Assembly (NCBI GenBank): GCA_965287045.1
Contig: OZ336878.1
Coordinates: 96,782,001 to 96,846,000, forward strand
Direction of reading: 5' to 3'
Length of the DNA stretch: 64,000 nucleotides
From: Carcharhinus amblyrhynchos
Lineage: Eukaryota
The notes beneath the pieces are model-generated. The model saw only the letters and a program-made list of their open reading frames with translations. It was not told the origin of the DNA and ran no database searches. Numbering within the stretch: position 1 is the first letter of the stretch; each line of letters starts with the position of its first letter. The position numbers and the translations under genes are program-made. This document shows, piece by piece, positions 272 to 64,000 of the stretch.

Positions 272-1200
272 TTACTTTGAATATCTGCTCAGTTGCTCTT
301 TATAATTAATTGATTGAATAATTGATCTGATTGGATATTTTACTGCCTTCATGAAGTGCTCTCTGAATATAGACTGTGTTGCACCATAAATAAATGTGTT
401 TGAGCAGCAATTTAAATTCATCAGCATATCGCCCACTCGTACAAATTTATTTAGAAAATCACTGTAATCTGAGAGATTTCTTCCCGTGATAATATATAAT
501 AAGAACTCTATGACATATATTAAACACAGAAGGATGAAACTACCAGATATACTGAAAAGCAAGGTCATGGATTTCCTCCTGCTCTCCATCTCTTGATCAC
601 TGTGTTTCTCTCCCTGATGCTGACTCTTGAGTCCTTTGCGAACTCGACTGGCCAATAACACATGTCTGACTGTCAGAGTGTTAAGCAACAAAATTAACAC
701 GAATGGAATGAATGGAGTTAAAACCTTATCAAACCAATCATAACCGATCCACGCTGGCACAGTGAAATATGCTAACTTTACATAACAGAACCATGGGACG
801 TTGTTGCTTATACCCCCAGGTTCAATGACAAAATAGAAAGATACATCTTTGGAGCACAACAGAATGCCGGTTGTTGTTAGAACTATCCACGTAACCCTTT
901 TGCTGCAATATCTAGTTTTCAGATTCTGGCAGGTAATAACGACAAATCGATTAAAGGTAAACGCTACGGTGAACCACACAGAACAGTCTCTGGCTGCGCG
1001 ACTCAGGGCAAAGATAACACTACATATAGGGGTGATATCCAGGAACGATATTGGGAAGTAATAAGAATTGAGTTGTCTGAGTATGATCTCGGTGAAAGCA
1101 ACCAGTAAATCCGTTGACGCCATGGCAACCGAATAGCGAGTTGTGCAGGTGGAGAGCCCACACTTTCCCTGGGACAGGATTATGATCGCCAATAAATTAA
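272..1200 (-). CDS. GPR139/GPR142-like class A GPCR, paralog 1, exon 2 (TM1 end to C-terminus)
   Basis: ORF 272..1276 reads VNLLAIIILSQGKCGLSTCTTRY...FTVAFTFNRF...ESRRKS...SNTFIY with seven hydrophobic segments. The acceptor 'ttttcttttctaacag' ends at 1201, so the exon starts at 1200 in phase 1; ORF residues upstream of that are intronic. Confidence 0.9.
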
Positions 1201-2989
1201 CTGTTAGAAAAGAAAATTGAAATAAGGTAAATGTATTCCTCTGCGTGATGCCATGCAGAAAAGGGCTAAATTTCAATAATTAACAACAGTGCTTTAAGAT
1301 GGGGATGTATCTTTAATTGAAAAACTCTGCAGGTCCCTGAGTCCCTTTTACCTGCTCAGTTTGTAGTTAAGAAAAGTGGAGCATTGGTGAACGTTAGCAA
1401 CACCCAGTATTGGTTGCCACATTCTTATGGTGAAGATGGTGGCAGTGTTTCGATCAGTTTTTTTTTTCAAGTTTAAAAATGGCATGGTGCATTTTTGCCT
1501 ATTTGGGACAGTAATCCCAGTAGCCGCGCAAAATCGTCACTTTAACAAACTCCCTATTCATATGATGCTAACACGACATATACTTACTGGTTTATTGAAC
1601 TTGAGAAATAATAAGTCAGACAAATAAAAGATCGGCCAAACTGTGAGGTCTGCAAAGATCGGACCACTCAACACACGTCCACTAAATTATAAGTGGGTCA
1701 GACTATCTGATTTCTTGCTGTTTGTTTCATATTCCTGAAGCCCAAAAGAAAGTCATTCCCATTGAGCGGACTGGGTTGCAGGGTTGGAACGTGTCAAGGA
1801 CAAACAAAGCTGGTACAGACAATTTGGAAATTTGAAAACGGTAAAATCATCTGACTAAACTGTTTGGATTTGTGCTATGCATGCATAGGAATTATGTCAA
1901 ATGAACTGATCATAACATCTGTTAGATGCATCCCACTATTAGGTCAAGTATATAGCAATTTTAATTTTTCAGCTCCTGTTATCGCCTTTTTCTGAAGTAA
2001 AATTAACTCCAAATCAACATTCATTCAACTTCACATCGATCACACATCATTCCCTCCTCTTCTTCATTCGCTCGATTGAATAGGATTACCCAAAAAATCC
2101 ATGTTCTTTCTTAACGTTTGATTGCCACTGCAGAGTAAACAAGATATTAATGTTGCAGCAGTTCCAAATATATCCTGGATACATTAGGAACTTGCGCAAG
2201 GAAGAGAAAGGCCCTTCACAGACAGCCACTGAAACCATCACTTTCGGAACTGAGGAGTGTATTTTAAGACTATTTATTTTCAACGCAAGAGAAAAACAAG
2301 AAATAATCACAACGTCTCCACATCAGGTAAAATCTAAGTAGGCTCTCGAGGTTGCCACTTTTCTGCCACTACTTTAGAAGGAAACGTGTCCGAAACAGAT
2401 AGAATTCACAGCAGATGTGGTCAATGAAGGGTGCGTCCGTCTATAACTCCACCAGTAGACACAGAGAAGGACAATAAGGCCTGCCTGTTATGCATGCCCC
2501 GTCTTGCCATTGCATTATGCACCAATAGAGCATTCCTCGATGGAGTAGGCATTATTGCAAAGCTATCATAGACCGTTGTGCATCTCTGTATGAGAAAATT
2601 GAGAGCGCTATTACAGGAAGGGGACTTCATCATGTACTTTTAAGCCGATATAATCATGGGAGCCGAATGTTATTTGCCATGGACAAGATATTGGTAATGT
2701 TGTTTAAAACGATGAGTTGTTCACACTTGGCTTTGAATCCTACTGTAACGAAATAGGCTCTGATACGTCGAATGCGCCCTTGGTGCCCGCAATATGCACA
2801 GAAATTTTGCTGCTAAGGCAGGACCCACGAAACTTTAGACTGTCCCAGTGAACTTTCGACACCATATCCATTCGATCACAATTGGCATGCTGTTGACATT
2901 GGAACAAGGATATATTGAAATACCCTTGCTGATTACTCTCCTCTGCAACTCGAACACAGATGGACAATATGAATGAAATGAGTGTTGTG

Positions 2990-3950
2990 CTGCCACAGGT
3001 GCACTATGGAAAGCAGCATGGCGTTGGTGAAAAATAATGTTGCTCTGTGGTAGGGAGAAATGTAGGTTTTGTACGATGTGTATATGTATAAAAACAGTTC
3101 TGTTTTTTTGGTGCGTTTAATTGTATGTCTTTATGACGGAAGGAACGTATTGTCTGATTAATATTACAGAAATGTGGTTGTATGTGTGTGGGTTTGTTTC
3201 AATCCCCATTGGGAGTCAACTGCTTTTCGAAAGTTATGGTCCTTGTTTGGTCTGGTGAAACAATCTTTCTCTGTTCTTTATTTATTTTCCCAGTAAGCTA
3301 AAAGTTGTTTCGGGTGGGCCTTGGGACATGAATAATATGTATTTCAGCCACGAGAAGATGGACAGGAAGATCAAAGTGCAGGTTTCCAAATAAACAAGAT
3401 AGTTCAGATAATATATAAAGTAAAAGTTACAGTTATTTGAGCCAGGCATCAATTATGGGATCTCCTCGTCCAGTTATCAAAACCATTCGGATCTTAACAA
3501 TATTGGGAGCTTTTGTGTTGTTGCCTGAGAAAGTGATGTTGAATGTGATTGTCGTAATTTGTTGTAAAGTTTTGAAATGTGGAAAGCAAAGCAGTGAGGC
3601 TCAAAAGTAAAACTTGTTTTGGGATCAATTGTTCCCTTCTATTTTTTGTTCAACGTACTGATTTCAATGGAAAATAAAGCAACTTCAGTGCAATGCAATT
3701 GATGAATTTCCACTGGGTAGATCCTTTGGTGAAACTGTAGCGGCGAAGAAACTTTAGTTGATTCGTCCTCTAGAAACCGTTATTTCGCAAGTTTTTTTCT
3801 TAATTTAGAGAACGAAATTTAATGGGTCCAATGCGTGAACTTGCAATTTAGTTCCATGGCAACAAGGTCAACACCTCCTCACAGCTTCATAGAAGCTTCA
3901 TATGGCTCAGGCGTGACTATGTCTTTGTGGTAGGTGTTCACATCGGGAAA
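2990..3950 (+). mobile_element. Possible degenerate LTR-like element in the paralog 1 intron
   Basis: TG-starting, GT-rich non-coding block with internal AATAAA, resembling solo LTRs; termini and TSD not resolved. Confidence 0.2.
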
Positions 3951-4867
3951 GCTATAAGGGTTATTCCCGGGACGTTAAAAGTAACACAGGCATAACTGAT
4001 TGTTATTGAAACATGTGTTGAACACCATGACCTTCGCAGAGGAATAAAAAACAAATCTGCTTCAAAGAAACCCGCGAAATTATCAAACAACCCCATTACA
4101 AAATGCTGCTTAAAAATGCATTCACCCTTCTGAAAAGCCACAAACTGGAAACTTGCGATGGCGCACCTCGTTATTCACTACAAATATCATCAAATGCAAA
4201 GTTGTTAATTATTTGAGTGGTATGGTTCGATGTTTGAAATTTCTGCGGTAAGCCTGGAAAAAGCCACAAATACATGTGTCCAGGTCAAGGAACGTGAGGA
4301 ATCCTGCACCACAAGTGAAAATGACAGCTTCTTAAAATTGGATCGCCCATTTATTGAACCTCTGCCCTGAGAGGCCATTTTTGGCATCAGTTGCACTGTT
4401 TCGGCTGAAGTTAGTGATTGCTTCTTAATCTTAATATTAAACTTTAACTACACGCATTTTAGCTAAACGAAAAAAAAGTATGTATCATTGAGAACACCCA
4501 TCTTAAAACGCCAATAAATACAAAGCATTTCAGTAAACTATATTTAAAAAGACTACCCCTGATTGCTGGATGGAATGACCAGTCAACGGAGATATGAAAA
4601 TGAATTGATTCCATTCAAGCTCATGTCAGCGCAGAGTACAAAATTTTCTTTAATATGCTGAGAAGCGCATCAAATATTTCACTGTAGCCGCAGACGAAGA
4701 GTCAGTGCAGCTTTCCAGTGAATGGATTCCCAATGACAAAAGGATATTAAGGCCAGGTATGCCACTATGTACAGTGAAAAACATTTGGTAAAATTCCACA
4801 ATTTAGAAGCTCCCATTGATAAATCGACTCTACGATCAGATTGAACAGCAAATGCATTTTCTTCTCA

Positions 4868-4972
4868 TAACAATAATAATAATTGTTGTTGTTGTTGTTG
4901 ATGATGATGATGATGATGTTGATATTGTTCTAATGCTTGTTCTTCTTCCTCATCATCTCCTTCTTATAATTA
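4868..4972. repeat. Compound trinucleotide microsatellite (ATA)n(GTT)n(GAT)n..(CTT/CAT)
   Basis: caataataataattgttgttgttgttgttgatgatgatgatgatgatgtt read directly. Confidence 0.9.
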
Positions 4973-6503
4973 TTAAAATGCGCTTATTGGATACCCACTT
5001 GGCTGAAAAGGCATAATTTGTTGTTCATAGTTAAACGCATTTGCGATGTGTTCGATTGCAATCATTTTGAATAGATGCAGCCAGTATAGTGAAGGTATTG
5101 CCGCATTGCTGTTAGGAATTGAATTCGTATAGCTGCACTCTGGTGCTTCAATTGTACTTTGAAATGACTGTCGGTTTGGATGCTGCTCTCCAAGTAGACT
5201 TTGCGAGTGCACTTGTGCGTCCTCTGCATCCAGTAAAGTGTTACCATAGCGAGTCAATTGTGAAGGAAGCAAAACACTCAGGTGGCAATGGTATGACAAT
5301 TAGGCGGACTTCACATTCACTCCTTGAGTGTTTTGAATGTGCACTGATTCAACTAACTGTTGACGAATCTGTCAATCTCATCAGCTTCCCGAGCTGTGCG
5401 TTGTAGATTGTAGAGAAGTGTTTGGAAGGGACAAGATAATTTATTCACCTCAAAATTCATTGTCTTCATATCCTCTTGTTGGTACTTACACGATTGACTA
5501 GTTCAGCTCCTGTCAAATGTTTAGCGCCTGGATAATGATAGCAGGATGATCAGCGACAGTAAAGGAGATAAATGTCAATGGGAACTGGTTCAGAATATCT
5601 ATTGTTCGAGATGATTATTACATTGGCACCTGTGACGTGAATAGATATTGGCACTCAATCACCCAATACTGAATGTACTTCAAATCTACTTCAGGACCTG
5701 AAGAATAAGGGATTGTGTTGACTATGATGTTCATTTGCAGTGGGTATCTAACTTTTGAAATGTAAATATACGCAAAGTTATTGAAACGAGCTTGGACCGG
5801 ATTGAAAGAGTGAGATTATCCTGGAACAATATCATCGGACTTAAATGACTGACCTCCAAAAACACAAGAATTATCCTTTGTCCGACGTTTGACGCCAAGA
5901 ATCAAACATCTCCCACTCTAATTCACGTTGACCTCAAATTTGTCAGAGCACCTTGTTGCCACGCAAGCCCAAATGTTGTCCCTTTCTTCGGAGAAAACAT
6001 TTTCACATCAGTTGACTTCTGCGGTCTATTTTGGCGATTGGATAGATTTTTGTCGTATAATTTCCGTTCTACTTCTGATCAAGAATACGTTTATGGACCA
6101 GCGAATACCGTGTTGTATTTCTCCAGCGTTTTGCAGCTAGGGCGTGCCTAGGCAATTTTACGTATTGTAGCAGTATGCTTTTGCAGTAGCTGCACTGAAA
6201 CAGTTTCTGCTGACTACCTGTATATCAAATCCTCAGTAATATTCCAGGTCTGTAATCCAGCAATATTGGCAGTGTATATTCAGGGATCACAGCGATTATA
6301 GTGCCCAATAATTCGACAAAAGACAGTTATTTGGTAATTATGTGGTACTACTAAATACAACTTCATATACTCGGGACTTTTGGTCAAACAAAATTATCTC
6401 ACCAATCGATCTATATACGGCAATGAGCAAGTGATACATTCACTCGTAGAATAAACCTAAGGCCAACATACGGAATCGCAAATTAAAAACTGTAATAACT
6501 TAC

Positions 6504-6566
6504 CCGGAACGCCGATAAAGCAAGAATTAGATAATACAACTTCTCAACGGCATAAAGTGTCTCCAT
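6504..6566 (-). CDS. Paralog 1 exon 1 (METLYAVEKLYYLILA..IGVP), apparently frameshifted by 1 bp
   Basis: ATG at 6566-6564 and the end ATC GGC GTT CCG G|gtaagt match the exon 1 end of paralogs 2 and 3. Length is 63 nt, but a phase-1 junction needs 3n+1. Confidence 0.8.
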
Positions 6567-6655
6567 GATGTTCCGGCTCAAATGAGCTGCACCTCCGTGT
6601 TCCATTCAAACTATGTCAATTAAAAACGAAGCTAACGTATTGCCAGTGCCTTTGG

Positions 6656-6683
6656 TTTATACTATGAGGAATCTCCATGAGGA
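6656..6683 (-). promoter_or_regulatory. Putative core promoter of paralog 1 (TCCTCATGGAGATT-N8-TATAAA)
   Basis: TATAAA on minus at 6656-6661, about 90 bp upstream of the ATG, preceded by a motif resembling the one upstream of paralog 2. Confidence 0.45.
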
Positions 6684-14717: not shown

Positions 14718-14746
14718 TCCCACAGGTGATTTTGTTCAATTATAAA
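14718..14746 (+). promoter_or_regulatory. Putative core promoter of paralog 2 (TCCCACAGGTGATT-N9-TATAAA)
   Basis: TATAAA at 14741-14746, starting 64 bp before the ATG at 14805. Confidence 0.5.
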
Positions 14747-14804: not shown

Positions 14805-14874
14805 ATGGAGCAGCCTGTAATCCTTCAGATCGAAAGCTATTATTATCCTTTCCTTGCGATAGTTGGTGTTCCTG
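14805..14874 (+). CDS. GPR139/GPR142-like GPCR paralog 2, exon 1 (MEQPVILQIESYYYPFLAIVGVP)
   Basis: ATG in good context (gaaATGG), 70 nt, canonical donor G|gtaagt at 14875; joins exon 2 in frame to give GVP-A-NLVTIVIL. Confidence 0.92.
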
Positions 14875-15429
14875 GTAAGTTGTTTGATATCATTTAAATG
14901 TTAGCGGCCATTGTGCAAGTTGCACGTTTGTCAATGAAGTTGTTTTCCTGTTCATTTTGATGTCTTATCGGTTACAAATGACAGCATTGAACAGTTGAAA
15001 TTATTATTTGCAGATGTCACCTTCTTGATAATACAGTATCGAAGAGGGAGCGGTTTTGTTGCTACTATTCAATTTGAATTATGCTAATTTGGGGGTTAAT
15101 TCAATGCAAGTATTTGGAATTTGTCCGCTGTGTTCTCAAACAAAGCAGAAACCAAATGAATCCTCCAGCTAAACATTAAAAAGAATGCCTCGCAGTGGTT
15201 TTATATTATCAACAAAAATTGAGAACCTTGACAATAACCAACTTTGAGATCGGAGTCGGATTTGAATGACTTATGTTCTTATGTTCTTATGACTCTAAAC
15301 ACTTCTCAGACCGCGTTGCGCTGTAATGTGTCCAGCGACATTTTGCAGCCCAAGGTTTTTCAGCAGTACAACAGACAATTATCATTACTATTATTTTATA
15401 AATGCATTTTAAAATGGCCTTATTCGCTT

Positions 15430-16620
15430 CAAGGCAATTTCACTCCACAACCAAATTTCAACTCGATCGTAGTCTGCCACCGGCAGCAAAATTTGAGAAC
15501 AATCCGGATTCTTTTCCCTTTTCTATTTCCTATCAGTCCCTTTTGTATTTTTTTTTAAATTTAAGTATTCTTATTTTAACCGGAATGGCGGAGCAGTTAG
15601 AAACAAATTTGAAAATCACACCGTGTCAGATCTCTCCCAGGCCATAGAAAGCGGAGAAAGCAGCTCGGGGCTGAAAAACGGGAGCGATGACCCCTGCCCC
15701 CGAAAAAAAACACTGCCCTCTTATCTACGCCGCCCCCCACCCCGAACACTATGCACAGAAATCGGTGTCCTGCTTATCAACGCCCCCACTAAGAACGATC
15801 GCCACCCCTGCCCCTCATCACCCGCGGAGAGGCAACGGACCTCCGTGCTCCCCCTCTCCCCTACCAGAGTTCAATCTGGCCCATCCACCAGAGATCCATC
15901 TCCTGTCATCCCACCAGCGAGGGGTCGGGCCTCCCCCCAGTCCCCACACCAGAGACGCATTTTACCCAAATCACTCCCCCCGCCTCCAGACAACGATCTG
16001 GCCTCACACACACCCCGTCTCGACTACCAGAGAATGGTCTAGCCTCACTCAACCCCCATCCCGTCACGGCCCACCCCCAAGAGAATGTTCTGGCCTCACT
16101 CATCTGATGCGCCATCTCCTCCCTCCACCGCCCCCCCTCCGCCCCGCCCAGAACGATAGGCCCTACGCACATCCGTCCACCAGAGATGCATGTAATCGGG
16201 GTCCTCCTCCCCCGCCACGCCCACCCCCCCCTTCCGGAAACCAGAGAATGATCTGGCCTGCCTTCCTTCTTCTCCCCACCACTGATCGGAGTCACAAAGC
16301 CATTGGAAGCTCTGAACTCACCTCGTCAGCAGCTGGAGTGCCCGATCAGACGTTTACTTAACAGATCAATTACGGCCGGCTTGGGAGACACGGTGGTAAA
16401 GGGGGAAATGCTGATAAAGTTGCGCAGACAATTCATTAACTCAATTTAAATGAATGTAAATGCATTTAAATCGCAGTTGCACACATTAAAGGCGCAAAGT
16501 GGATCACTGCCATCCCCACGTTCCCGGAAAATGACAGTCTGCACGGATGCGGGCACAGATCACATTAATGGCCTCACACCCGACTTTACCACGTTTTCGC
16601 GCCTGTTTAAATTCGGGCCC
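15430..16620. mobile_element. GC-rich, probably non-autonomous DNA element (Harbinger-type end) containing a C-rich degenerate minisatellite
   Basis: Ends in aaattcgggccc; the internal motif ccaccagaga...tctggcctcac recurs with poly-C runs at about 15780-16270. Confidence 0.4.
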
Positions 16621-17282
16621 TTTGTGGTGCTTGCAGTGCAAATTTGTACACTTGGGCGATTTTTAGGCTTAAACGTCTTTAATCTAAGAACACACGTAAC
16701 GGCGCATTAACACAAATTGAGAAGCTGGTGCTGAGTTATTTCCAGTTAGTCCTGTGTTATTGTAATAACAAATGACACAAACAAGCAGTACGCAGTAAAA
16801 ACAATAGTTTTTTTTTCTCGACGGGAATCAATTATATTGCGATTTTCAGGATAAGGTGATGCACCCATTCTGGATTATATTGTTTTCCCAAGACACACTG
16901 GGTTACTTCTGAAGTTTTTGATTTTTTTCTTAATAGCAAGCTGGGAGTTACTACTGTGTGTTTCTTCCATGTTCGACTGAAACTTCGAGATAGTAGATAG
17001 TATCTGCATTAACGAAATCAATGTTGTTTCTTGTCATTTTATGCATTACGGCTGAATATCGAGTTATTGTGTTTTTTTTACGACTTGCTGTGTTGGAAGA
17101 CTGCTGATGTAAAGCTTGCTAGTATTCAATCCCTGCATATTAATCCAAAAGCAAACCAGGTTTCATTTTGTTATGACAATATCATTGCTGCTGCATTTAA
17201 ATGTGCATCGTCTGTATTCGTTGTGAAAATTTTGGGAAACTTGTGTTGATACTTCGTGTAAGTATACCGATTCTTAATGCTG

Positions 17283-17829
17283 CAAGTAGTTTCACAACAC
17301 CAGGTTAAAAACCAACAGATTTATGTGTTAGCACGAGCTTTTGGAGCGCTGCTCTATCATCGGGTGAGTGGAGTGTTGAGTTCACAAACAGGACATATAT
17401 AGACTCAATTTCAAGATCATGGTCGCAGTGCCAGTCCTAACAGGTAATCAAGTCTTTACAGGCACATTAAATACAAGTGAAGAAAAGCAAAATGCCGGCT
17501 CACTTTTATTTACAACGTAGAGAGGATCTCCAAGAAGATCTCGCACATCGATACATACACTATGTTTCTACAACAATGCAAGAAAGCAGACCCCTCCACT
17601 TGCGTTGTCTTTACCCGTAAAGACTTCGTTACCTCCTAAAACTTGCATTCAAACCATTATCTTGTAACTGTGTATTTGTCTACGCCCTGCTTGGCAAATC
17701 ATCTCTCCACTCACCTGATGAAAGAGCAGCTCTCCGAAAGCTCGTGCGACAAAATAAGCCTCGTTCACTTTAACTTGGTGTTGTGAGAATTCTTACTGTG
17801 ACCGCCCCAGCCCAACACATCTCCACATC
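17283..17829 (+). mobile_element. Internally deleted Penelope-like element with inverted pseudo-LTR, in the paralog 2 intron
   Basis: About 17290-17373 is the reverse complement of about 17705-17790 (ctccactcacctgatga...gaaagctcgtg...tggtgttgtga). The interior encodes VERISKKISHIDT...FLQQCKKAD, like a Penelope ORF N-terminus; ends ...catctccacatc. Confidence 0.75.
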
Positions 17830-18098
17830 TTAAATATCAGTTGGAATAGCAGACTTATTCCATAAATTGTATATTCTAACGATGTAATAGATTAATGTCT
17901 CACTTTGTCCCTATCAAGCAGCTCTTTAAAGAATCGTTACCATGCATTTCTATAAATTGGCAAACGTGCAAGTCTGGTGCAAAAACCATGGCGATAGTGT
18001 GAGATATCACTTATAGTTAGAAACCTATCATTTTGCACGACCAACTTACAATCAGAAATGTGAACCAGCAGTGAAGAAATGATTTATGTTCCTTGCAG

Positions 18099-18991
18099 CT
18101 AATTTGGTGACAATCGTTATACTCGCCCGTGGAAAATGCGGTCTTTCCAAATGCATCACCCGTTATCTCGTCACAGTGGCGGCTGCTGACTTTATGGTTC
18201 TGATATTTGAAGTAACTCTTTATGTGACGAAAACTGTGAGTTTGCCAAACTTATTCCTGAAGTACACGCCCATTTGTAGCCTCAATATTGCTCTACTGTT
18301 TCTGTTCATTGATTGTTCCGTCTGGTTAACTGTGGCCTTCACTTTCGATCGATACATCGGTATTTCTCAACAAAGTTTGCAAACAAAATACTGCACAGAG
18401 AAAATTGCATCTTTGGTGACTGTTGTGGTGTGTCTCTTGTGTATTCTGGAAAATGCTCCAATTTATTTTGCTTACCAGCCTCGAAAAATCATTGATAATC
18501 TACCCTTCTCCTGTCGTCTGAAATCAAGCTTCTACACGTCACCAATATGGGTGGCATTTTTATGGTTGGAAACTATTTTAACTCCCTTTGCGCCATTTCT
18601 GTTGATCTTGCTGTTTAATTTACTCACCATCAGGCATATTTTATTTGCGAATAGAGTTCGAAGACAGCTACGTAAAAGGACGGATGTCCGGAATAAAACA
18701 GATCCCGAGATAGAGAGCCGCAGGAAATCTATAATTTTACTTCTCGCGATTTCTGGCAGTTTCTTACTCTTGTGGATGGTAAATTTTACATTATTCGTAC
18801 TTGTGCAATTTACAGATATTAAATTGTTGCATGACGATTACAACGACCCCGGCACCATTGCAGAACAGTGTGGATATATGCTTAGGGCTTTGAGTTCTTG
18901 CACAAATACATTTATTTACGGAGCCTCTCAACGCAAATTCCGGGAAGAATTATTATTGCTTTTCCAAAGGCTGTCATTCGGAAATTTGTGA
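18099..18991 (+). CDS. GPR139/GPR142-like GPCR paralog 2, exon 2 (spliced product 320 aa, intact)
   Basis: Acceptor ttccttgcag ends at 18098. Motifs RGKCGLSKCITRYLV, AADF (TM2), FTFDRY, LTPFAPF (TM5), ESRRKS, CTNTFIY. Stop TGA at 18989-18991; AATAAA at 19015-19020. Confidence 0.95.
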
Positions 18992-20969: not shown

Positions 20970-22470
20970 GTTCTCGAAAGTCAGCCGGTGGAAAGCGACT
21001 AGCCCAATGGTGTACCCGGGCAAGCACTCAGATCCAGCGCGGATCAGCTGGCCGGGGTATTCACAGACAACTTCAGCCTCGCTTTCCAACAGTCTGAGTC
21101 CATATCTGCTTCAGGAAGATGACTATTATCCCGCTGTCTAAGGACAACTAAGCAGCATTCCTTACGACTATCAACCAGTGGCTCTGACATCCATTATGGC
21201 GGTCTGCGAAAGGCTAGTCATGGCACGAATCAATTCCCGCCTCACGGACTACCTTGATCCACGACAGTTTGCCTAGCGCTGCAACAAGTCCATAGCAGAT
21301 GCCATCTCCCTGGGCCTGAACTCAACCTTGGAAAACTTAAATTACAAGGACACGTAAGACAGAGCCCTACTTATTGATTACAGCTCATCCACTAGCACCA
21401 TTATTCCCACGAAATGCGTCACCAAACTCCGTGGCCTGGGCCTCCGCACCTCCCTCTACGAACGGATCCTAAAATTCCTAACGTACTGACCGCAATCCGT
21501 AATAATAGCCAACAACACCTTCTCCACGATTATCCTTAACATAGGTGCCCCACATGGCTGTGTTTTCAGCTCCCTACTATACTCTTTTTACACCTGTGAC
21601 TATGCGGCCAAATTCTCCTCCAATTCTATTTTCAAGTTTGTTGGCCACACCATCGTAGTGGGTCGCATCTCAAAGAATGATGCTATAGAGGATAGGAATA
21701 AGATACAGAATCTGGTGAACAGATGCGGCAACAATAATGTTTTTCTCAATGTCAGCAAAACGAAGGAGATTGACTTCAGGAAGCGAAAAGGAGAAAATCC
21801 CCCGGCCTACATCAATGGTGACGAAATGGAAAGGGTCGAGAGCTTCAAGTTTTTAGATGTCCAAATCACCAACGTCTCTCCTCTCTCCACCACCCCCCCC
21901 CCCCACCTCCCCCCCACCCCATGCCAAAATTATAGTTGAAAAAAAACACCAACGCCTGTGCTTTCTCAGAAGACGAAGGAAATTTGACAATGTTAGCGAC
22001 GACTTTCACCAGTTTTTACAGATGCCTCAAAAAAAATTATGGTAGTGTCACAACGTGGCATGGATCCTGCCCTGCCCAAGGCCGCACGAACGGTCGTGAG
22101 TACAGCCTAACCTATAACACAAACCATCCCCCCATCCTTTGATTCCGTCTATCCTTCCCACTGCTTTGGCAAAGCAGATGGCATAATAAAGGATCACACG
22201 CACCCCGGACATTATCTCTTCTACCTTCTTCCGTCGGAAAAAAAAATACAAACGAATCAAGAACTGCCGCTTCCATGCTGCTGTTAGAATTTTGTTTGAA
22301 CTTACCTGGCATTAAATTGATCTTTCCCTACACCCTAGCTATGACTGCACCACTACAGTCTGCACTCTCTCATTCTTTCTCCAAGAACGGTATGCTTTGC
22401 CTGTGTAGCGCACAAGAAACAATACTTTTCTTTATACGTTAATGCATGTGAAAATAAGATGTCAAATCAG
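20970..22470 (+). mobile_element. Rex1/Babar-clade LINE, 5'-truncated and degenerate
   Basis: Broken RT reading PVALTSIM..., LDPRQFA, LLIDYSS..TIIP, GAPHGCVFSSLLYSFYT, IFKF..., NNNVFLNVSKTKEIDFRK, HQRLCFLRR. Confidence 0.85.
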
Positions 22471-26870: not shown

Positions 26871-27705
26871 TATACCTATTGAAGGGAAGATTATAGGATA
26901 GGATGAGAGGAAACAATACCCTTGGTCTAGGTGCCTGCAATACAATTTATATTCAAAGATGCCTGTATAACAATTTACATTAGTAGGGGTAAAGAGTATG
27001 TAATGAATATGCATGAATTTACTGTTATATGTTCACAAAGGGCATGTATGAAATCGCCACCACGTTATCAGGAGCTCAGGATAGTAAAACGACACAAGAT
27101 GGGTGCTAGCTTTCAGCCACACTCCTGAGCACCACTAGCTGGCTTGAGCGCAAGCTTATGCACAACAGACCACAGATTCTTGTGACTGGTACTAGTCTAT
27201 GATCTGAGGTCTCGGATGGAAACCAGACATGGAGGATTTGGGAGTGCAGTCTTGGGGGATGATAAGGAGGACAACTGGACAAAGAGTATTGCACACTCAA
27301 GGACTCCAAATGGGAGAAATATTGACGAGGTACCATGAATGGTGAACATGAGACCACGAGCGGATCATGCGCAATCCCACCTTTCATAAAGCCTCTTATT
27401 TATTGAATACGTGACTACTGTATGCCATCTGTAATCAATATTATTGGACAAGGTCCAGCCGTGAATAGCTGTAGATGTTTGAAAAATGTATAAGAATGGG
27501 CGTTTTCTTTTTCTTTGTTCACCAGAGAGAGGCACTGGGTTTAATAGAAGCCCTTTCCCCGCCCGTGAAATTAAACAGTTCGATGCCTGGACCCAACCCT
27601 GGGCTGTGAGTGTTTTATTTCAGAGTCTTTCCGGCTAACAGTTTGATCCCCGCTTTCGATAATGGGCTGACCCCACCAGCTCCTGAAACAGAGGTTTTAT
27701 GGAAT

Positions 27706-28111
27706 ATAGGTTGAGGGAGCTGGGACTCTTCTCCCTGGAAAGACGAAGATTGAGAGGCGATCTGATAGAGGTTTATAAAATGTTGAGAGGAATAGATAGG
27801 GTGGATTCTCAAAGGCTATTTCCCCGGGTTGAAATGGTCGCTACGAGAGAACACAGATTTAAGGCGCGGGCAGGCAAGTACAGAAGTGATGTCAGGGGTA
27901 AGTTTTTCACTCAAAGGGTGGTGAGTGAATGGAATCGGCTGCCGTCAGTGGTGGTGGAGGCGAACTCGCTGGGGTCTTTTAAATACTTCTGGATGAGTAT
28001 ATGGGATTTAGTGGGATTGGGAGTTATAGATATGGATTGGTAGGTGTTGATGTGATCGGCGCAACTCGTGGGCCGAAGGGCCTGTTTGTGCTGTAGTGTT
28101 CTATGTTCTAT
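27706..28111 (+). mobile_element. Young 5'-truncated CR1 3' end inserted in the ERV 3' region
   Basis: Open frame RLRELGLFSLERRRLRGDLIEVYKMLRG...KFFTQRVVSEWNRLP; 3' end gggccgaagggcctg...gttctatgttctat. Confidence 0.92.
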
Positions 28112-30620: not shown

Positions 30621-32799
30621 GACCTATGGGTTTAAAACAAAATGAGCCTGGGGCACCATGAATTAATCAACACTATTAATTTAACTCCTTCCATGCAAGC
30701 TAGCGTCCGGGGTTTAAAAGGAGAGAATTCGATTTAGGTGAGGGAAGCCTTAACATTTCTATCTCTTCAGGTGGCTCTGGAAAGTGGTGACTTGTTTGAG
30801 TCCTCAATATTGCCCATTTAAAAAATAACATGAACGCCATATAAAAGAGAAATGAATACGAATGCCCAATTGCACTGTGCTGCAGAGCGCTAACTCACGC
30901 CTGGTAACATTCAGCTGACAGGCGGTTTCCCTCATCATTGCGTGTTCAGACATTATCCTTTGGATCATAACACTTTAGTTTTCACATCAATACAAGTGTC
31001 ACTTGTCATAATGATGTCTGAGGGCCCGGTTCATTTGGATGCAAATCTCACTTGTTTTGGGACCACTCTTACTAATACTCTGTCCTGTGCTGCTAAGCAA
31101 GTACAGCTGCCTGCATTGCATCACTTTCCTCACAGAAAATGTGAAATAGTTTGGCGATGTCAGGCAATCCCAGAACTGGTGCTGTCACAAAGCCTGATTC
31201 AAATCTGAAAAAAAAAGCCTGTACTTCTGCATCTCCCTCCTCTATGTTGTTCTGACTAGCGTCCCCTCCCTTTATTAAATCCTGTAAGGGCTTTCGCACT
31301 TGGGCGTAATCTTCCAAAAACTTCCTACAATAGCTAAAAAAAATCTTCAATGCTTGTTTTATCCTTTTTTCTGGTGAAAACTCTTTGTACATTTTTTTCG
31401 AATATTATAACCAAAGAACATATTTGGAACAGATATCAAATCTTTTAATCTGATGCCAGACCATATATTGTTTGTTCTTGTCCTAAAGAACATCATTTTA
31501 TTAAGGTAACTTGCTTACAGCAAATTTCCCTATGTCAGAATCTTCCCAAACTAAGAAAACTGTGTTGTGGGCTTTCAACTGTCTATTGATGTTTAGTTTG
31601 CCTCTTCTTTCTGTTAAGGATACTTTGTTTCCTTATCCATAGCCATCACGTAAACTGTATTCTACTTCCTTGAATCCCTTTAAATACCCCTCTTGTATCT
31701 AATGAATCTCACTTTTGATTCTGTTCTCTTCTATTTATTATCAGCTCCTCTCTAATATACCTTATATTATTCCGTTCATTTTATTTTCTCATTTATTCCA
31801 CTGAATTATTTCCTTCATTTATTATTATATTAAGTTGTCAATTTGGTATTATAATTGGGCTCTCTCTATAAGCCCGTCTGGCATCTAATACAGTTTTCAA
31901 CCTTCCCAGATTCAAAATTTACAACAGGCTATGTGTTTCGAACTACTACTTCAGTTTTGTGATTGATTCACTAACGTTGCATAATCATGTAACACATTTT
32001 AATTAGAATCCATTATGGCAGTATAATAATTCCCATCATTAAACACGCACTCCCATTCTACCTGATGTAACTCCCATTTCCGTTAGATTTTTAGTTGTAC
32101 GCCTTAAAATTACTGCAAGTCTTATAACACAAAGATCTATCCTGTCTGGGACAGAGTGGCTTAATTTTCTGCTTATTTCAGCAAGGGCGGAGTAAGTTCA
32201 TTCACATTGACATCATCACTTCAAACATTCTGGAATCATTCTTTCCATTTACCTTTTCTTTGTCAGTCGTATCAAGAATACATTTTCGAATTTAACAAGA
32301 CGCCTGATCCAGGTAATCCAAAATAAAATTTGTCGACACAGGAGTGCTTGGTGATTACTCTGTATCTGCAGTCACGACGTTTGTGCGGAAGGTTTATTTT
32401 TTTCCCCCCTCTTGTAAGCTACCTCACCACCTTTTGCGATCCCACCCGTGCAGACATGTAATTTTTGACCCGTCTAGCTGTATCTTGGGTGGAAATACAT
32501 ATATTTTTGCTGGAATTGATAAAAAGGCGGCAGTTTTGCCCCAGAAAGTACAAAAGTGAACGAAATGGTTTTTTTTTCGATAATTAGTAATGCTTAATTG
32601 TTTCATTGTTGCCATTCGACATTTAATTCCAGATGTTCTATTACGCTTTGAAATCTCCCCCATTTGTCTTGGATTTATCTAGATTTCTCGTTAAACGATA
32701 ATACCACTGTGTCATCATCTCCCTCTATCATGTTTGCTCATTGTGACTTGATGCAGCCCCACTCCGAGACACATTGAACCCATGCCCTTCGATACAATT

Positions 32800-35600: not shown

Positions 35601-35654
35601 TTGGCTTAAGACAAGCCTTAAAACGTCCTTATTATCCTGTGCAGCCTTCATTCC

Positions 35655-49538: not shown

Positions 49539-51534
49539 TCCTGAAATAAGCCAATTCTGACGAATTATACAATGTGTATAGGCATAGAATGCGCAATTTC
49601 CCTTCATAAAAAAAAAACCCCTCATCTATAAAATCAGCCTAGAGACCCAACTGTGTACTGTCTCCATAAAGTCATCCTCCTCCTAAAATAAGAAAACAAA
49701 AAAAGTGTACATAGCACCCTTGCGCGTCCGCATTAATGGTTTGCATACTTGCAGCAATGAGTCACTGCTTTCATACTATCGATGTCAAAATTTCATTTGC
49801 TTTCTTTATAGCGTTATATTTTGGATGCTAGTTTTCTGTTATTCATGCATACTTGCATGAATGAGCTAAATTCACACTTAACCATCTTCAAATTCATCTA
49901 CCAAGTGTTGTGCCACTAACCTTACCTATTCATGCCCATTTGTAAATTTCTTATCACCTCGTTGCAACTCATTTTCCCCACCTATTTTAAAGTAATCTGC
50001 AAAGCTACCTATAGTGCCTTATATCCCCGTATCCAAATCACAGGAAATGCCCTATTCATCTCAAGCCTTTGCTTACAGTTGGTAAATTTACATGGAATTA
50101 CAGGTGAATTGACCTTGTGCATTAACTTCTGGTGATCCGAATTGTGGAATATCTTCTCGATGTCCAGATATGCTCGAAATACAGGATCCACATATTCCTG
50201 TTCGATTGTTGTACCTTTGAAGAAAGAGCCAAAGAGAGAAGGAGTTGTAAAACGTAACTTTATGGAATTGACCTATATTCCAATATAGGATTTCGACTTT
50301 TGATCAGCTCGAATTTCTCCACTAGCGTAAAACTTCAGACGCGATTACTGTTCTATTCCACTAATTTCAAAAACGAACATGGGCTATTTGTCACACCTCG
50401 TTTACTGGCACTCGGCATCTCCTTTCTAATGGAACAGATATATAAAAAAAGACCAACGTTATGACAGCAATCACTAATGTCCAAATACGTAAAAAAATCC
50501 CGAGCCAATATTTGCCTAATTATGGCCCGGCATTCACTACTCTATGTATTTATTGCATATCGCTCTGATTTCCCAACAGATTCACTCCTATATCGTCATT
50601 TATCTATTTATAGGCCGTCAGGTTACTCCAGTAACATCGTCGTGTTATTTTGTTTCTCAAGTACAAACACATAGACGTCGTCTTTGCATGCTGAACGGCA
50701 TTTTTTTATTTCCAAAAAACATACAGTACTCCCTAAACAGGAAAGTGAATTTAACGGCTTCTGCGTGCGCAAATATTTTCATAATAGTCTTTAATCTTGA
50801 ATGTCAAGCGCCAGTTCCCACTTTTAACGGGTTTTGAGACACAGCTCTGCTGATGTTACTTCGCCATTGTCTGACATAGTTATTAGCGTCGGAATAGCAC
50901 AAACAGTATTCATTGACTCATTAGTTCACACACGTGCTTTCTAAACATATTTGGTGTTCCTCAATTTCCTTCGTATTCTGGGACAAACCCATAAGTCACC
51001 ACGGTCTTCCCATACAAGGTCCTTTAAGTAAAATTGATGAATTTTACTCTTGTTACTGACCGCGATATGTTGGTTCTATTGTTTTGCCAAATAACTTAAA
51101 TACTCTACAGGCAGATCAAAATATATCGTCTAAAAAAACTATCAGGTTTTCTTGAAACTTTTTTTATTCTCTTTCAGGAGGTGCTGCATCGCTTAGTGTT
51201 TACCCCAATATCCCACGAATCTGATATCCTCCAATCTGCACCACGTCTCAAGCCACATATTTATCCTCCATACATTTTTCCTCTTTAAAGTGGGAAATGG
51301 GAGAAATACAGTTGTTGCTACAGCCGAAGACCTCCGCTTAATAACCGTCTTAATTTCGAAAAATCCGGTCTCGTGAACTCAATAGATGCCCTGCGACACG
51401 TTCCTGCCAAAGTTCATCACAACTTGTGGCTATCTATCTTCAGAACATTCACTACCTTCTCCCTGGCATCGGCCAAGTTCAGTAAAAAGTCTGACAACAC
51501 CAGGTTTTAGTCCAACCTATTTATTTGATAATAT

Positions 51535-51576
51535 GCTCACAAGCTTTCGAGGGGACTGCCTCTTCGTCAGGTGAAT
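51535..51576 (-). ncRNA. Minimal type I hammerhead ribozyme motif, copy 1
   Basis: Minus strand: AUUCAC CUGACGA A GAGG-cagucc-CCUC GAAA GC UU GUGAGC. Confidence 0.75.
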
Positions 51577-51588
51577 GGAGAGTTTTCC

Positions 51589-51630
51589 ATTCACCTGACG
51601 AAGAGGCAGTCCCCTCGAAAGCTTGTGAGT
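51589..51630 (+). ncRNA. Minimal type I hammerhead ribozyme motif, copy 2
   Basis: Stem I auucac/gugagu; CUGACGA 51595-51601; stem II gagg/ccuc; GAAA 51617-51620; palindromic AGCU in place of stem III; predicted cut after 51624. Confidence 0.78.
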
Positions 51631-51670
51631 ATATTATCAAATAAATAGGTTGGTGAATGGAGAACTCTCC

Positions 51671-51712
51671 ATTCACCTGACGAAGAGGCAGTCCCCTCGA
51701 AAGCTTGTGAGT
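51671..51712 (+). ncRNA. Minimal type I hammerhead ribozyme motif, copy 3
   Basis: Identical to copy 2; CUGACGA 51677-51683, GAAA 51699-51702, predicted cut after 51706. Confidence 0.78.
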
Positions 51713-52073
51713 ATATTATCAAATAAATAGGTTGGACTAAAACCTGGTGTTGTCAGACTTTTTACTGTGTTTACGCCAGTCCAACGCCGGCATACCCATA
51801 TCATCGGCCAAGTTCTCATGGCTGAGGTAATGCATAATGATAAATTCACGTTTACGGTTATAGAAATGATTGTGCACCAATTGCTGAATCTTCGACAACG
51901 ATTGCACCTGTGCTCTTATCTATCCGGTGACAAAGCCATATTTTTTTAAAAGTTGCAACATTTGTATTTTATTATCTTTTTGTGTCAATTTTTCTTTCGA
52001 ATTTTCTGTTCCAGGTACATTCTTACTGCGTTGATTTTAGCTTTGCCCTACTTAATTATTAGTAATATTAGTA

Positions 52074-57233: not shown

Positions 57234-57533
57234 CATAGAATCATTACAGTGCAGGGGAAGACCGTTTGCTACATCGAACCTGCACCGACACCATCCCATC
57301 CACATAACCTACGTATTTTGCCTGCTCGTACTCCTGACAATACAAGTAAATTTCCCATGGTCAATCAACTTGAACTACGCATTTTTGGACTGTGGGAGGA
57401 AAGTGGAGCAGCCGGAGGATGCCATGCAGACACGGAGAAAATATACAAACTGGACACAGAAGGTCACCCAGGCCAGAATTGAACCCGAGTTTCTGGCGGT
57501 GTGAGAGAGCCGTGCGAACCATTGTGCCGCCCC
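57234..57533 (-). mobile_element. tRNA-derived SINE (HE1-like)
   Basis: Minus begins ggggcggcacaatggttcgcacggct...ctcgggttcaattctggcc; core tttggactgtgggaggaaa; tail catagaatc. Confidence 0.8.
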
Positions 57534-59559: not shown

Positions 59560-61210
59560 ATTGCGGGGTTATGCGGGAGGCAAAACTGAAATTCATCCCA
59601 AGGAGGAGGAAACATGCTAAGGAGAGGACGAGGCATCCATGTCTGAGGAGATAAGTCAAGGACCGTGAAAACGCAAAAGGGATATGCGGCAAAGTGGCCA
59701 GGATTAGTGAGAAGCCAGAGATAGCTGAGGAAATCGTGGAGGCATTGTTGGTGATCTTTCAGGAACTGCTGATTGCAGCGAGGATCCCACAGAACTGGAA
59801 AGTTGTTCATGTAACACCTCAGTTTAAGAAGGGAGGGAGACAACAGACCAGAAATTATCGGCTCGTGAGTCTGACCTCGGTAATTTGCAAGATTTTAGAG
59901 TCCATTATGAAACTTGAGATCGCGGAGTACTTGGAAGTGCAGGGTAAAATAGGACTGATTCAGTACAGCTTCGAAAACCCGATGTCAGGTCTGACAAATC
60001 AGGCAGAGTTCTTTGATGAGGTAACAAGCACGTTGGGTGAAGGAGAATCAGTGAACGTGATATATTTATATTTCCAATCAGCCTTTGACAAGATGCCACA
60101 TAGGACAATATTAAATAAGTTAAAAGCCCATTGTGTTCAGGGTAAGATCATGGCACGGTTAGAAGATTAGCTGATTGCATAAGGAAGACTGTGAGGATAA
60201 AGGAGTCTTCTCCAGATGACAAGAGGTGTGCCTCAGGGGTGGAGCTGGGACAACAATGTTGCACGGTATACATGAACGATTTGGAGGAATGAACTGAAGG
60301 CAAAGTTGCTTCGTTGGCAGATGATAAAAAGGTATGTAAAGGGATAAGTAGTACTGAGGACGCAGGGGGCTGCAGAAGAATTGGACGGGTTACAAGCGTG
60401 GGCAAAGAAGTGTCGGGGGAGTACAATGTGGGAAAGTGTGTGGTTATGCACTTTGGAAGGAGTAATGGACGCAAAGGCTATTTTGGAAGTGGGGAAATGC
60501 TTCGGAAATAAGAAGCACAGAAGGAATTGGGAGTCGTTGTTCAAGATGTTCTTACGGCTAACATGCAGTTGGCTCGGCAATTAGGAATGTTAGTGCAATG
60601 TTAGCATTCGTTTTGAGAGGGCTAGTATACAAGAGTAGGAATGTACTACTGATGCTGCATTAGGCTCTGTTCTGGGCCAATTTGAAGTATTGTTTAGCAG
60701 TTTTGGACCCTAAGTTTAAGGAAGAATGCACTAACCTTGGAACAGCTCCAGAGGAGGTTCACAAAATGATCTCTAGAATGAAGAACTCTGAATCTTGTCG
60801 GGTTGGAGTTCAGAAGGATGAGGGGGGAGGGGGGGGGGACCTCATTGAAATTATAGGATACTGCAAGGCCTGGATCGTGTGGAAGTAGAGAGGTTGTTTC
60901 TACTGGTAGGAAAACTAGAACCAGATGACAAAGTTCCAGGCTAACGGGACAATCCTTTCAATAAAAAAAATGAGAAGGGTTTGTTTTTTTCAGCCAAGAA
61001 CGGTGAATCTGTTGAACTCTTTGCCGCAGAAGGCTATGGATTCAAGTCATTGAGTGTCCGTAACACAAAATAGGTAGGTTCTTGATTTATGAGGGGATCA
61101 GACGTTAAGGAGAAAAGGCAGAAGAATGGGAATGAGAAAAATCATGATTGAATGGCGGAGCAGACTCGATGGGCCGCGAGGGTTACTTCTATTCCTAGTT
61201 TCATGGTCTA
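59560..61210 (+). mobile_element. CR1 LINE ORF2 3' half, degenerate
   Basis: ORF 59694-60170 EIVEALLVIFQ..WKVVHVTPQFKKGGRQQTRNYRLVSLTSVICKILESI...VIYLYFQSAFDKMPH; GVPQG; LADDKK; 3' end aatggcggagcagactcgatgggccg. Confidence 0.9.
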
Positions 61211-61263
61211 ACGGATGGCTAAATCCATTTCATTCAGACTGCTGTGAAGTTTAGTGCGTGACA

Positions 61264-62180
61264 CTATTTGTGATTTTTTTTCAATTTATTAAAGGCGATC
61301 AGGAAGGGCGTAATCATATTCTTCAATTCGTCTCGGAATTTCCTCTGGGACACTGCATAAATGAATGTGTTTGTGCAAGAACTTAAACACCGAAGCATGT
61401 AACCAGACTGTTCTGCAACGGTGAAAGAATCAGTGTAGTTTCCTTGCAGTAACTGGGAATCTGTGATTTGCACCAGTATAGCACATATAAATATTACAAG
61501 CCATAGCAGTATAAGATTTCCAGAAATGGCGAGGAGTAAAATTATAGATTTCCTTCGATTCCCTGCCTCCGGGTCAGTGAAATTCCTCCCAGTGTTATTT
61601 TTTCCTAGAAGCCCACTCCTCACTTTATTAGCCAGCATGATGTTGTTGATGGTCAGGGCATTGAGCAGCAAAATCAATGTAAGTGGAGCAAACGGAGTTA
61701 AAAACGTGTCGAACCACAAAAATGCAACCCATACTGGGGAGATGTAAAAGCTGGACTTCACGGCGCAGTATAGAGTCAGGTTTTCTATTATTTCCCGAGG
61801 TTCATAGATAAAGTAGATTGGAACATTTTGCAAAATCATGGCGAAGCACACCACTGTTATTACCTTAGTTGCAGTTTTCTCCGTGCAATATTTTCTTTGA
61901 AAGCTTTGGTAGCATATAGCAACAAATCGATCAAATGTGAAAGCAACAGTAAGCCATACAGAACAATCAACTGAAAGGAAGAGCAAGGCCAGATTGAGAC
62001 TACAAATGGGGGTATAGTTCAGAAACGAATACGGGAAGTAAGCATCTTTAATTTCATACAGAATAACTTCAAATATCAGGACCATTAAATCCGCCACCGT
62101 CATGGCTACCAAATAACGAGTGATGCACTTTGACAGACCACATTTTCCCCGACAGAGAATGACAACTGTCACACAATTAG
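61264..62180 (-). CDS. GPR139/GPR142-like GPCR paralog 3, exon 2 (open frame)
   Basis: Acceptor ttctattcttattgcag ends at 62181; ANCVTVVILCRGKCGLSKCITRYLVAM, FTFDRF, LTPFAPL, NRRKSIILLL, CTNTFIY; stop TAG at 61264-61266. Confidence 0.95.
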
Positions 62181-63971
62181 CTGCAATAAGAATAGAAATG
62201 AAGTTAACTGACATTAAGCAAGAACATATGCATAACACGGATGTAAATATTCTAATCCATACCTAAAAATGCGTTTTCTGTAATGCACATAGTACACCTG
62301 GAACCTGAGGCAAATTGATTTCGCTTGTTTCATTTATATTCCCATGCCTCATACCTCTAACTGATTTGAATCACATCTACAAAATTCCAGGTAAAGCCTG
62401 AAGCATTTCAGATTTTAATGTCTCCAAATATTTACGTAAATTCTGCTGGCCGAAATAAGCTAATCCTTCAAGCTCACCCAAAATGATCATATAGAAAAAG
62501 CCACAAACTCCATGTATGTTGCAGTATTACTTTGTGATTTTTTTTAAAAAATCCTGAGTTGCAAGCAGAATAGTATCAGAATTTAAACTATCCTATTTAT
62601 TCTGGAGTTGGTTTTGCCAAGTCTAATGGACTTATCACGAAGAAGCATTTTAATTCACATGATTGACCAGACCAGCGTCGGCCGCACGATATAGACTTGC
62701 ATAAACACCTCTGTATAATGCAGGACCTGAAATTTCCCCAGAAAATTTTCCTGATGGAACGATAAAAATCAGTTCAATGCTATTATATCAGCCTGATCAC
62801 GTTTGTTTTGTGAGAAATCACAAAGTGATCAGAGTGAATAGAAATTTTGTGTGCACGAATGATAATCTTTACCATAGGAGACACATTTCAGGTCTTAGAC
62901 AAAGTCAGAATGATGGTCAGGGGTAATCACCCCTTAGTGTCCAAAGACGTTAAGGTTAAATTGCTTGACGATGTGTGGGATGATGAATATAGGGTACATA
63001 AGGGATGTGCTTGACATGCCCTTTCGAAAAGTCAGTGCAGACTAGTTTGACCGAATATCCTTATAAAGCACTCGAGGGATTATATGGTTTTAAGCATTGC
63101 AGTGACAATGTGAGCAAGTGTGCTTCATATTTAAGACATTGGAATTGTCTGAAACTCCCAACACATGTGGCCAGTGAAAAAAAATCAAATGTTTCAAGTG
63201 AAATGTGAATGATTACTTGCAAGATAAAGTGTCGTGATTTGTTTGTAGATCTGTAGAATCTGGTTGAATAGATTACTCAACAGAGATCTATCATGGACAA
63301 GGGCTGTATAGCTTCCAATGTCATCAACGCGATTACAACACTACATGCCTGCTGTTCTATTTTCAACAACAATATACTAAACTTTACTTTGTTTAGTTTC
63401 CCTTGAACAGCCATCGAAAATCCCTTGTCAATTGTTCTGCTTTGTCTGCATGACTGAGAGTCTAACGTCTCAAGATTACTGTTTTTTTTTATCTGAACCC
63501 CTGAAAATGAGGAAGAAATACTTAAAACGTTTCGTAAATTATTTTACCTTCAAAACATCCCAGTTACTTGGAGCGATTTGAATAATACAGATTTAGATTT
63601 TTTGGAGAGCAGACCCTTAAAATGATGTAGGACTTGGAAGGCAATAATTTGACTACTTCCTTCCGGAAGTCACAGACATTCAGTCAACAGCGCTTCTCAG
63701 CCAACTTTGCAGAATATTTCTTAATATTCCCACGATTGTGAAGCTGCAAATACTGATAAATTGTCTTATAGTAGACGTCTGGTGAACTCACAACCTTGGC
63801 ATTTCATTCACCGTCTTTACCTGATACTTTGAGTGCCAGTTGTATTGTGCTACGACACACAAATGTGCCAAGCAAATCACGATAATCAACAACAACATTT
63901 CACTGCCAGTAGGAGGTGTGACATAGACAAATGCAATGACAGATCAATACAAATTACATATAGATACTTAC

Positions 63972-64000
63972 CTGGAACACCAATTATTGCAAGGATAGGG
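63972..64000 (-). CDS. Paralog 3 exon 1, 3' part (..PILAIIGVP), cut by the window edge
   Basis: Minus c cct atc ctt gca ata att ggt gtt cca g|gtaagt; the phase-1 donor matches the exon 2 acceptor; intron 62181-63971. Confidence 0.9.

Follow-up and report, generated by a model that had tools for sequence, protein, structure and literature searches.

A birth-and-death family of class A receptors in sharks and rays as a candidate chemoreceptor repertoire

The window considered here is a stretch of 64,000 nucleotides from the shark Carcharhinus amblyrhynchos (assembly GCA_965287045.1, contig OZ336878.1, positions 96,782,001 to 96,846,000), which sits on a contig of 112 Mb in a genome of 2.92 Gb. 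It carries three two-exon genes for GPCRs (G-protein-coupled receptors) of class A, referred to as copies A, B, and C and oriented minus, plus, and minus. The open reading frames of all three match the Pfam family 7tm_1 (PF00001; E 3e-15, 5e-21, and 8e-18), which is the sole Pfam family matched, with no match to an olfactory-receptor family. In each gene, a small exon 1 ends in the residues GVP and is followed by a phase-1 intron that opens with a GT donor and closes with an AG acceptor, ahead of the residues x-N-L/C, and the second exon of all three copies encodes the signature GKCGLSxCxTRY in the first inner loop. Pairwise identity is 42% between A and B, 41% between A and C, and 63% between B and C. 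The original prediction of three paralogues in mixed orientation, each with a tiny exon 1, a phase-1 intron after GVP, and this loop signature, was thus confirmed. The very short N-terminus, which it had described as well, holds for copy B, in which 10 residues precede the YYP sequence, but not as a universal feature, as longer first exons occur in the family.

Copy A occupies the minus strand and comprises an open exon 2 at 272–1200, encoding the second half of transmembrane helix 1 (TM1) to the stop codon, a GT...AG intron of 5.3 kb at 1201–6503, and exon 1 at 6504–6566. Its promoter (6656–6683) contains an O/E(EBF)-like site at 6674–6683 with 2 mismatches, located 22 bp before a TATA box at 6656–6661. 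The first exon is one base short within a run of T and is therefore out of frame with exon 2. The extra base is present in one contig of a related organism (X1) and was not seen in the rows listed for X2–X4, with 32 indel rows outside that list. Copy A also carries NRF in place of DRF, Ser in place of Leu in TRYL, and Cys in place of Trp6.48; Leu and Trp stand at the latter two sites in all four related-organism runs. Because of the missing base and these substitutions, copy A is a probable recent pseudogene, in agreement with the damaged copy that had been suspected, although the missing base could instead reflect a mistake of the assembly within the run of T.

Copy B lies on the plus strand, with a promoter at 14718–14746 (O/E(EBF)-like site with 2 mismatches at 14718–14727, placed 23 bp ahead of a TATA box at 14741–14746), an exon 1 of 23 codons and one base with a phase-1 donor at 14805–14874, an intron of 3.2 kb at 14875–18098, and an intact exon 2 at 18099–18991, giving 320 amino acids when spliced by coordinates. 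Copy C, on the minus strand, has an intact exon 2 at 61264–62180 (328 amino acids spliced by coordinates), an intron of 1.8 kb at 62181–63971, and the 3′ part of exon 1 at 63972–64000; this exon runs off the window and is completed intact, with the start codon 41 bases past the window end. The protein of copy C is 77% identical to a horn shark protein. The 214 kb that surround the window contain 8 loci, 2 of them with a broken exon 2, in addition to the broken copy A, and one is a near-identical duplicate of copy B located 44 kb upstream of it. A weak remnant resembling exon 1 (E 0.85; L087:8320-8394) lies upstream of the broken locus at 96.890 Mb.

The three genes belong to a very large family. 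A sequence pattern of TM3 has 1,228 exact matches genome-wide (0 in the control), and a pattern of TM7 has 980 (8 in the control). The two patterns overlap in 72 of 100 cases in the listed range, which gives a union of 1,316–1,463 and a capture-recapture estimate of 1,350–1,620. Checked against two sets of loci identified in other ways, the TM3 pattern recovers 22 of 28 and 20 of 37, leading to estimates of 1,563 and 2,272. The family size is therefore about 1,300–2,300 loci; the first-look candidate totals of 3,384 and 3,053 are not copy numbers. Coding matches are distributed over 27 contigs and exon 1 matches over three more, that is, over at least 30 contigs. In a sample of 40 TM3 loci, taken at even spacing among the first 100 listed, exon 2 is intact in 33, clearly broken in 6, and unclear in 1, and an exon 1 with a GT donor was found in 30 of 39 upstream stretches of 8 kb. 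The locus estimates, the share of intact second exons, and the recovery of exon 1 together yield about 1,000 or more intact genes, a count that uncollapsed haplotypes could inflate. The length of exon 1 is 21–32 codons in 25 of these 30 cases and greater in 5. Longer first exons were observed in subfamilies on contigs C33, C34, C38, and C39 (L221–L243), where the donor lies approximately 380–417 bases after the promoter element described below.

The median pairwise identity of sampled copies is 48%, members of young arrays share 86–100% of their nucleotides, and 3 identical protein pairs occur among 22 copies on contig C13. Public protein data contain 2,230 related proteins; among the 120 matches listed, all named ones come from sharks or rays, and most carry the NCBI name "probable GPR139". 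Ray proteins nest within several subfamilies, so the radiation predates the split of sharks and rays. A spliced exon 1 was present in 0 of 9 Logan-derived family proteins, a result that is uninformative. A birth-and-death family, as originally proposed, is thus borne out by the motif matches, the broken copies, and the young arrays, on a scale far larger than guessed. The alternative of few copies genome-wide does not apply, as the motif loci exceed 1,200 and are clustered, and one-to-one orthologues in bony vertebrates were not seen among the relatives searched.

The true GPR139 of this genome is a single motif match (L001, contig C18, 56.127 Mb), which shares 99% identity with an entry from Mustelus and 87% with one from human. 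Its intron acceptor, in phase 1 within TM1 and before A-N1.50, matches the acceptor of the family; its exon 1 was not found within the 50 kb searched upstream. GPR142 is present in other sharks and in a chimaera. The family is only 20–29% identical to GPR139. A GPR139/142 profile searched against 1.84 billion representative proteins surfaced one coelacanth and one lamprey protein with the short N-terminus and the loop motif of the family. The coelacanth protein, to which the family is 28–37% identical, has relatives at 46–66% identity in sharks, sturgeon, bichir, bowfin, teleosts, amphibians, turtles, and squamates, and no bird or mammal is named among the 120 of 145 matches listed. This third paralogue has one copy in the present genome (L162, L213; contig C22, 47.735–47.740 Mb), which is 64% identical to the coelacanth protein and keeps Arg6.51 while being without Trp6.48 and Pro6.50. 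Two of its entries in databases bear the names of TMEM183A isoforms, which may reflect a gene next to it. A fourth paralogue, also with one copy here (L163, contig C7, 106.817 Mb), pairs with the lamprey protein (support 100/99). The third and fourth paralogues may correspond to the orphan sets GPR210A/B, which the available part of PMC6504862 names beside GPR139/142 in coelacanth, gar, and fish; the identifiers there could not be matched to sequences.

An IQ-TREE phylogeny of 40 rows places the family as monophyletic (100/100) on a long stem of 1.13. Outward from it follow the third paralogue (93/93), the fourth (100/98), and amphioxus (96/89), while GPR139 and GPR142 form a separate clade, each of the two clades being supported at 100/100. 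The wider GPR139/142 group of 31 rows is one clade against the sampled invertebrate receptors (99/96), with the long stem as a caveat. Scores against the family profile are at most 198 bits for the third-paralogue set and at least 362 for family members. The earlier description of the genes as GPR139/142-like, in the sense of an expanded GPR139 or GPR142, is not upheld: the family is a sister branch, a joint clade of the family with GPR139/142 is rejected by the approximately unbiased (AU) test (p = 0.007), and Arg6.51 is lost.

In docking, L-Trp and L-Phe bind to Arg6.51, and activation of GPR139 depends critically on this residue (PMC8807744, available part). It is invariant in all GPR139, GPR142, third-paralogue, fourth-paralogue, and amphioxus rows, and is absent from all 44 family rows of the tree and present in only 1 of 66 family copies of this genome; copies A, B, and C have Tyr, Asn, and Ile at this position. 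Pro6.50, Glu3.32, and Asn7.38 are mostly lost in the family as well. Because of the sister-branch position and the loss of this ligand-binding residue, the sensing of aromatic amino acids should not be transferred to the family. Cys3.25 is present in the family and in the third and fourth paralogues and absent in all GPR139/142 rows, including the true GPR139 of the shark. Conservation within the family concerns Cys3.25, Trp6.48, the DRF region, and the third inner loop, while the pocket columns 2.61, 3.29, 3.32, 3.33, 3.36, and 7.42 are highly variable and pocket columns invariant in the relatives vary here. Conserved cysteines were also observed on the cytoplasmic side (CGLSxC, ICC, KYC, and SCCTN in inner loops 1 and 2 and TM7, e.g., in the exon at 61264–62180), for which palmitoylation or metal binding may be considered.

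The ratio of nonsynonymous to synonymous substitution rates (dN/dS) in three young arrays of 17, 22, and 20 genes is 0.30, 0.48, and 0.35, indicating purifying selection; these values are parsimony counts, which left out 6 of 23 loci on contig C36 and 4 of 24 on C33 that were without a full frame. The pocket and outer loops have a 1.62-fold higher density of amino-acid changes than the core (p = 2e-5), compared with 1.04 for synonymous changes. The genes are preserved, with drift or diversification on the ligand side.

The promoters were compared as the 334 bases before exon 1 of 32 family genes, with 324 intron windows as the background. These promoters are unalignable, with 2% of pairs above the null maximum, and have in common a 24-base element, TTTGTTCA-N-CTGTAAYTAAT, which scores 131 in de novo discovery vs. 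79–95 in nulls and the core of which occurs in 11 of 32 promoters and 3 of 324 intron windows. Since this motif was read from the same data, it was also checked outside the discovery set, where 86 matches were found genome-wide as opposed to 10 in the control. The first 30 of the 64 matches to the fixed-length element all lie 217–417 bases before the donor of a family exon 1, 17 of these 30 being near-copies from one cluster. TATA boxes occur in 17 of 32 promoters and in 36 of 324 intron windows.

The consensus of the O/E(EBF) palindrome is taken here to be TCCCNNGGGA, which matches the OMP probe. Sites resembling it number 48 in the 32 promoters vs. 20.4 in dinucleotide shuffles, compared with 22 vs. 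25.7 in introns. Such a site starts 12–32 bases before the TATA box in 11 of 22 TATA-bearing promoters vs. 5% in introns, an interval chosen after viewing the data. It also follows a TAAT core within a few bases in 7 of 11 non-redundant test loci, where 0.12 would be expected. In the 32 promoters, this homeodomain/EBF-like pairing shows weakly, with 4 of 32 against 1.4. For comparison, 21 clustered first exons of class C receptors were observed (L249–L269; contig C3, 133.47–134.42 and 138.37–138.47 Mb) and are taken, by motif and clustering, as putative V2R/OlfC genes. Before 12 non-redundant V2R-type genes EBF-like sites are in excess (25 vs. 11.7, p = 0.01), while DNA far upstream of them has 24 vs. 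30.9; an enrichment of TATA boxes is seen upstream of the V2R-type genes as well. The excess is not significant before 6 other class C genes, and the upstream region of the third paralogue has 0 EBF-like sites, no TATA box, and no family element. YYYCARRRR, CTAATT, E-box, and ISRE motifs are not enriched in the 32 promoters. Sites of the O/E, homeodomain, and TATA types mark the promoters of mouse odorant receptors (ORs) (PMC3247239 and PMC5608512, both in their available parts). The half-sites in the shark are similar to those of the mouse Lhx2/Ebf composite, with a spacing longer by 1–2 bases; because of this difference, and because a 2-base insertion weakens the mouse composite (PMC5608512, available part), identity with it is not claimed.

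These results show that elasmobranchs have more than 1,000 such class A GPCRs, a repertoire that is under selection and turning over. It goes back to a duplicated gene from a little-known paralogue, sister to GPR139/142, which diverged rapidly and then expanded and decayed in tandem arrays. The conserved inner face, together with the variable pocket and outer loops, suggests that the receptors probably use a common G-protein route, with a different ligand for each receptor. The shared short promoter, with its homeodomain-like, O/E(EBF)-like, and TATA sites, would drive expression in olfactory sensory neurons, with each gene active in few cells, and the receptors would detect water-borne molecules. 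From the ancestry among peptide receptors, small peptides or polar metabolites may be guessed as the ligands. On the sequence evidence, the chances slightly favour a birth-and-death chemoreceptor repertoire of olfactory neurons. The promoter motifs lend indirect support to the chemosensory part of the original proposal. A stronger proposal is evenly poised: the family could be a further olfactory receptor family of vertebrates, with 1,000 or more genes, that serves sharks and rays as their main set of odorant receptors, was recruited out of a lineage of neuropeptide receptors, and gained Lhx2/Ebf-type regulation independently of the ORs. In the catshark, Go and TRPC2 are expressed by nearly all olfactory neurons, which make up an almost uninterrupted layer, and the best receptor probe, v2r1, labels 5.9 cells per mm, with 0.5–2.8 for other probes (PMC10116579). 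The sparse labelling of such a layer would leave room for further receptors, and probe sensitivity could also explain the gap.

Several observations weigh against an olfactory role. The EBF-like sites are degenerate, with one within 1 mismatch in only 9 of 32 promoters, and a de novo EBF-like 14-mer scores no better than introns do (72.0 vs. 71.3). Only 1 of 18 TATA-bearing test loci, 17 of which are near-copies from one cluster, has a site at the expected place near the TATA box, and the 24-base element occurs in 0 of 21 V2R-type promoters. Since EBF acts in B cells as well as in many neurons, its motif is not specific to one tissue. No pooled region has a dN/dS above 0.64 against gene-wide synonymous rates, and none is above 1. 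The shark nose has been accounted for by V2Rs alone (PMC10116579), and no GPCR is found among the 50 most specific brain-and-nose transcripts of the catshark (PMC11979771), where V2Rs are absent too.

The same birth-and-death evidence would apply to a chemosensory repertoire of other cells, such as taste buds, solitary chemosensory cells of the skin, or somatosensory neurons, by analogy with the MRGPR receptors of itch and pain. This explanation is a minor but real possibility, and the lack of the Fox-like and homeodomain-like family element in V2R-type promoters suits it, as does the absence of MAS1 and its relatives from sharks in the available part of PMC8455134. The EBF-like enrichment common to the family and the V2R-type genes argues for the nose instead. 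In addition, repertoires of more than 1,000 genes are known mainly from noses. Immune receptors of leukocytes, e.g., B cells, that sense microbial peptides or metabolites in the manner of formyl-peptide receptors are unlikely. EBF-like and forkhead-like sites in the promoters fit the B-cell programme of EBF1 and FOXO1, and rapid turnover is typical of immune gene families; however, among 15 patterns tested, the immune-type motifs are not above the intron background (ETS 1/32, octamer 0/32, RUNX 5/32, NF-kB 10/32), there is no sign of dN/dS above 1, and the TAAT core beside the EBF-like site suits neurons better.

Internal sensors of metabolites or peptides in the gut, endocrine cells, or brain would extend the role of GPR139 and GPR142, the latter being an amino-acid sensor of gut and islet (PMC6323244, available part). 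The ancestry within the GPR139/142 group and the shared intron are consistent with such a role, which is nevertheless quite improbable given the near-complete loss of Arg6.51; internal signals, being few and conserved, would also leave more than 1,000 fast-turning genes unexplained. The view that most of the loci are non-functional or are artefactual duplicates in the assembly, and that segmental duplication has carried them along, draws on the many matches on small contigs, which are possible uncollapsed haplotypes, and on the identical protein pairs on contig C13. It is largely refuted by the 33 of 40 open exons, the dN/dS values of 0.30–0.48, the median identity of 48%, the promoter element conserved in unalignable DNA, and the 2,230 related public proteins, and has very little probability left.

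The window also contains traces of mobile elements and repeats. A decayed retroelement-like stretch lies on the minus strand at 29935–31404, with a weak RT_RNaseH_2 match at 31096–31404 (E 0.01) and a frame of 244 amino acids at 29935–30666 without a Pfam match. A LINE-like reverse transcriptase fragment is located at 59655–60167 (RVT_1, E 1.5e-6), and fragments at 21490–21936 and 27687–28040 resemble it by eye only. The frame at 35201–35605, which has no Pfam match, resembles a fragment of a Harbinger-type transposase. An 82-bp tandem repeat at 51480–51767 lies inside nested inverted repeats of 116 and 68 bases with 98–99% complementarity.

No description of this expansion was found in the literature searched, most subscription journals lying outside it. 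GPR139 is absent from the main texts of the catshark atlas (PMC11979771) and of a zebra shark preprint, the term "receptor 139" does not occur in the whale shark paper (PMC8455134), GPR139/142 was not found in 12 of the 24 supplement files of the latter, and the available part of a 2026 preprint on OR evolution does not mention the family. The genes are already in the NCBI annotation under the misleading automatic name "probable GPR139". The family is real, large, and apparently not described as such, and would be a known kind of system derived from a lineage without known vertebrate precedent. Cartilaginous fishes have been described as poor in GPCRs (PMC8455134, available part) and, their large noses notwithstanding, as equipped with a very small olfactory repertoire (PMC10116579). 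A functional family approximately 30 times as large as the 34 v2r genes of the catshark would contradict the first description whatever its role, and the chemical-sense repertoire of sharks and rays may far exceed the earlier view. If olfactory, the family would answer the standing puzzle of shark smell; as the main odorant repertoire, it would overturn the view that elasmobranchs smell through a few dozen V2Rs. A route to the ancestral ligand is offered by the sister paralogues that fish, amphibians, and reptiles have as single copies.

Among known systems, the closest are GPR139 and GPR142 and their lesser-known paralogues. With GPR139/142, class A orphan receptors for L-Trp and L-Phe that include the nearest solved structure by sequence (E 1e-7), the family shares the phase-1 intron before A-N1.50 and the wider clade; it differs in its low identity, the loss of Arg6.51, the presence of Cys3.25, and its many copies as opposed to a single GPR139. 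The third and fourth paralogues have in common with it the short exon 1, the intron position, and Cys3.25, and are its nearest neighbours in the tree, but they are single-copy and keep Arg6.51, while the family lies on a long stem, and the third lacks the upstream elements of the family. The OR, TAAR, V1R/ORA, and V2R/OlfC families are similar in their large clustered repertoires, pseudogenes, variable pockets, and, tentatively, O/E-like and TATA promoter sites, and differ in ancestry. Canonical ORs are also intronless, whereas the coding region of the family is split by one intron and has no olfactory-receptor Pfam match. The catshark has 4–9 genes in each olfactory family other than v2r (PMC10116579). 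The neighbours of the family in the protein atlas include clusters resembling FMRFamide receptors and Srw, which recalls nematode srw and the protostome MIP/sex-peptide, FMRFamide, and proctolin receptors. The srw genes are themselves a chemoreceptor expansion from the same branch. GPR139/142 share an origin with protostome peptide receptors (PMC8514136, available part). The shark family differs from these in lying on separate branches of the tree, in which most invertebrate rows are unnamed, and in having expanded independently.

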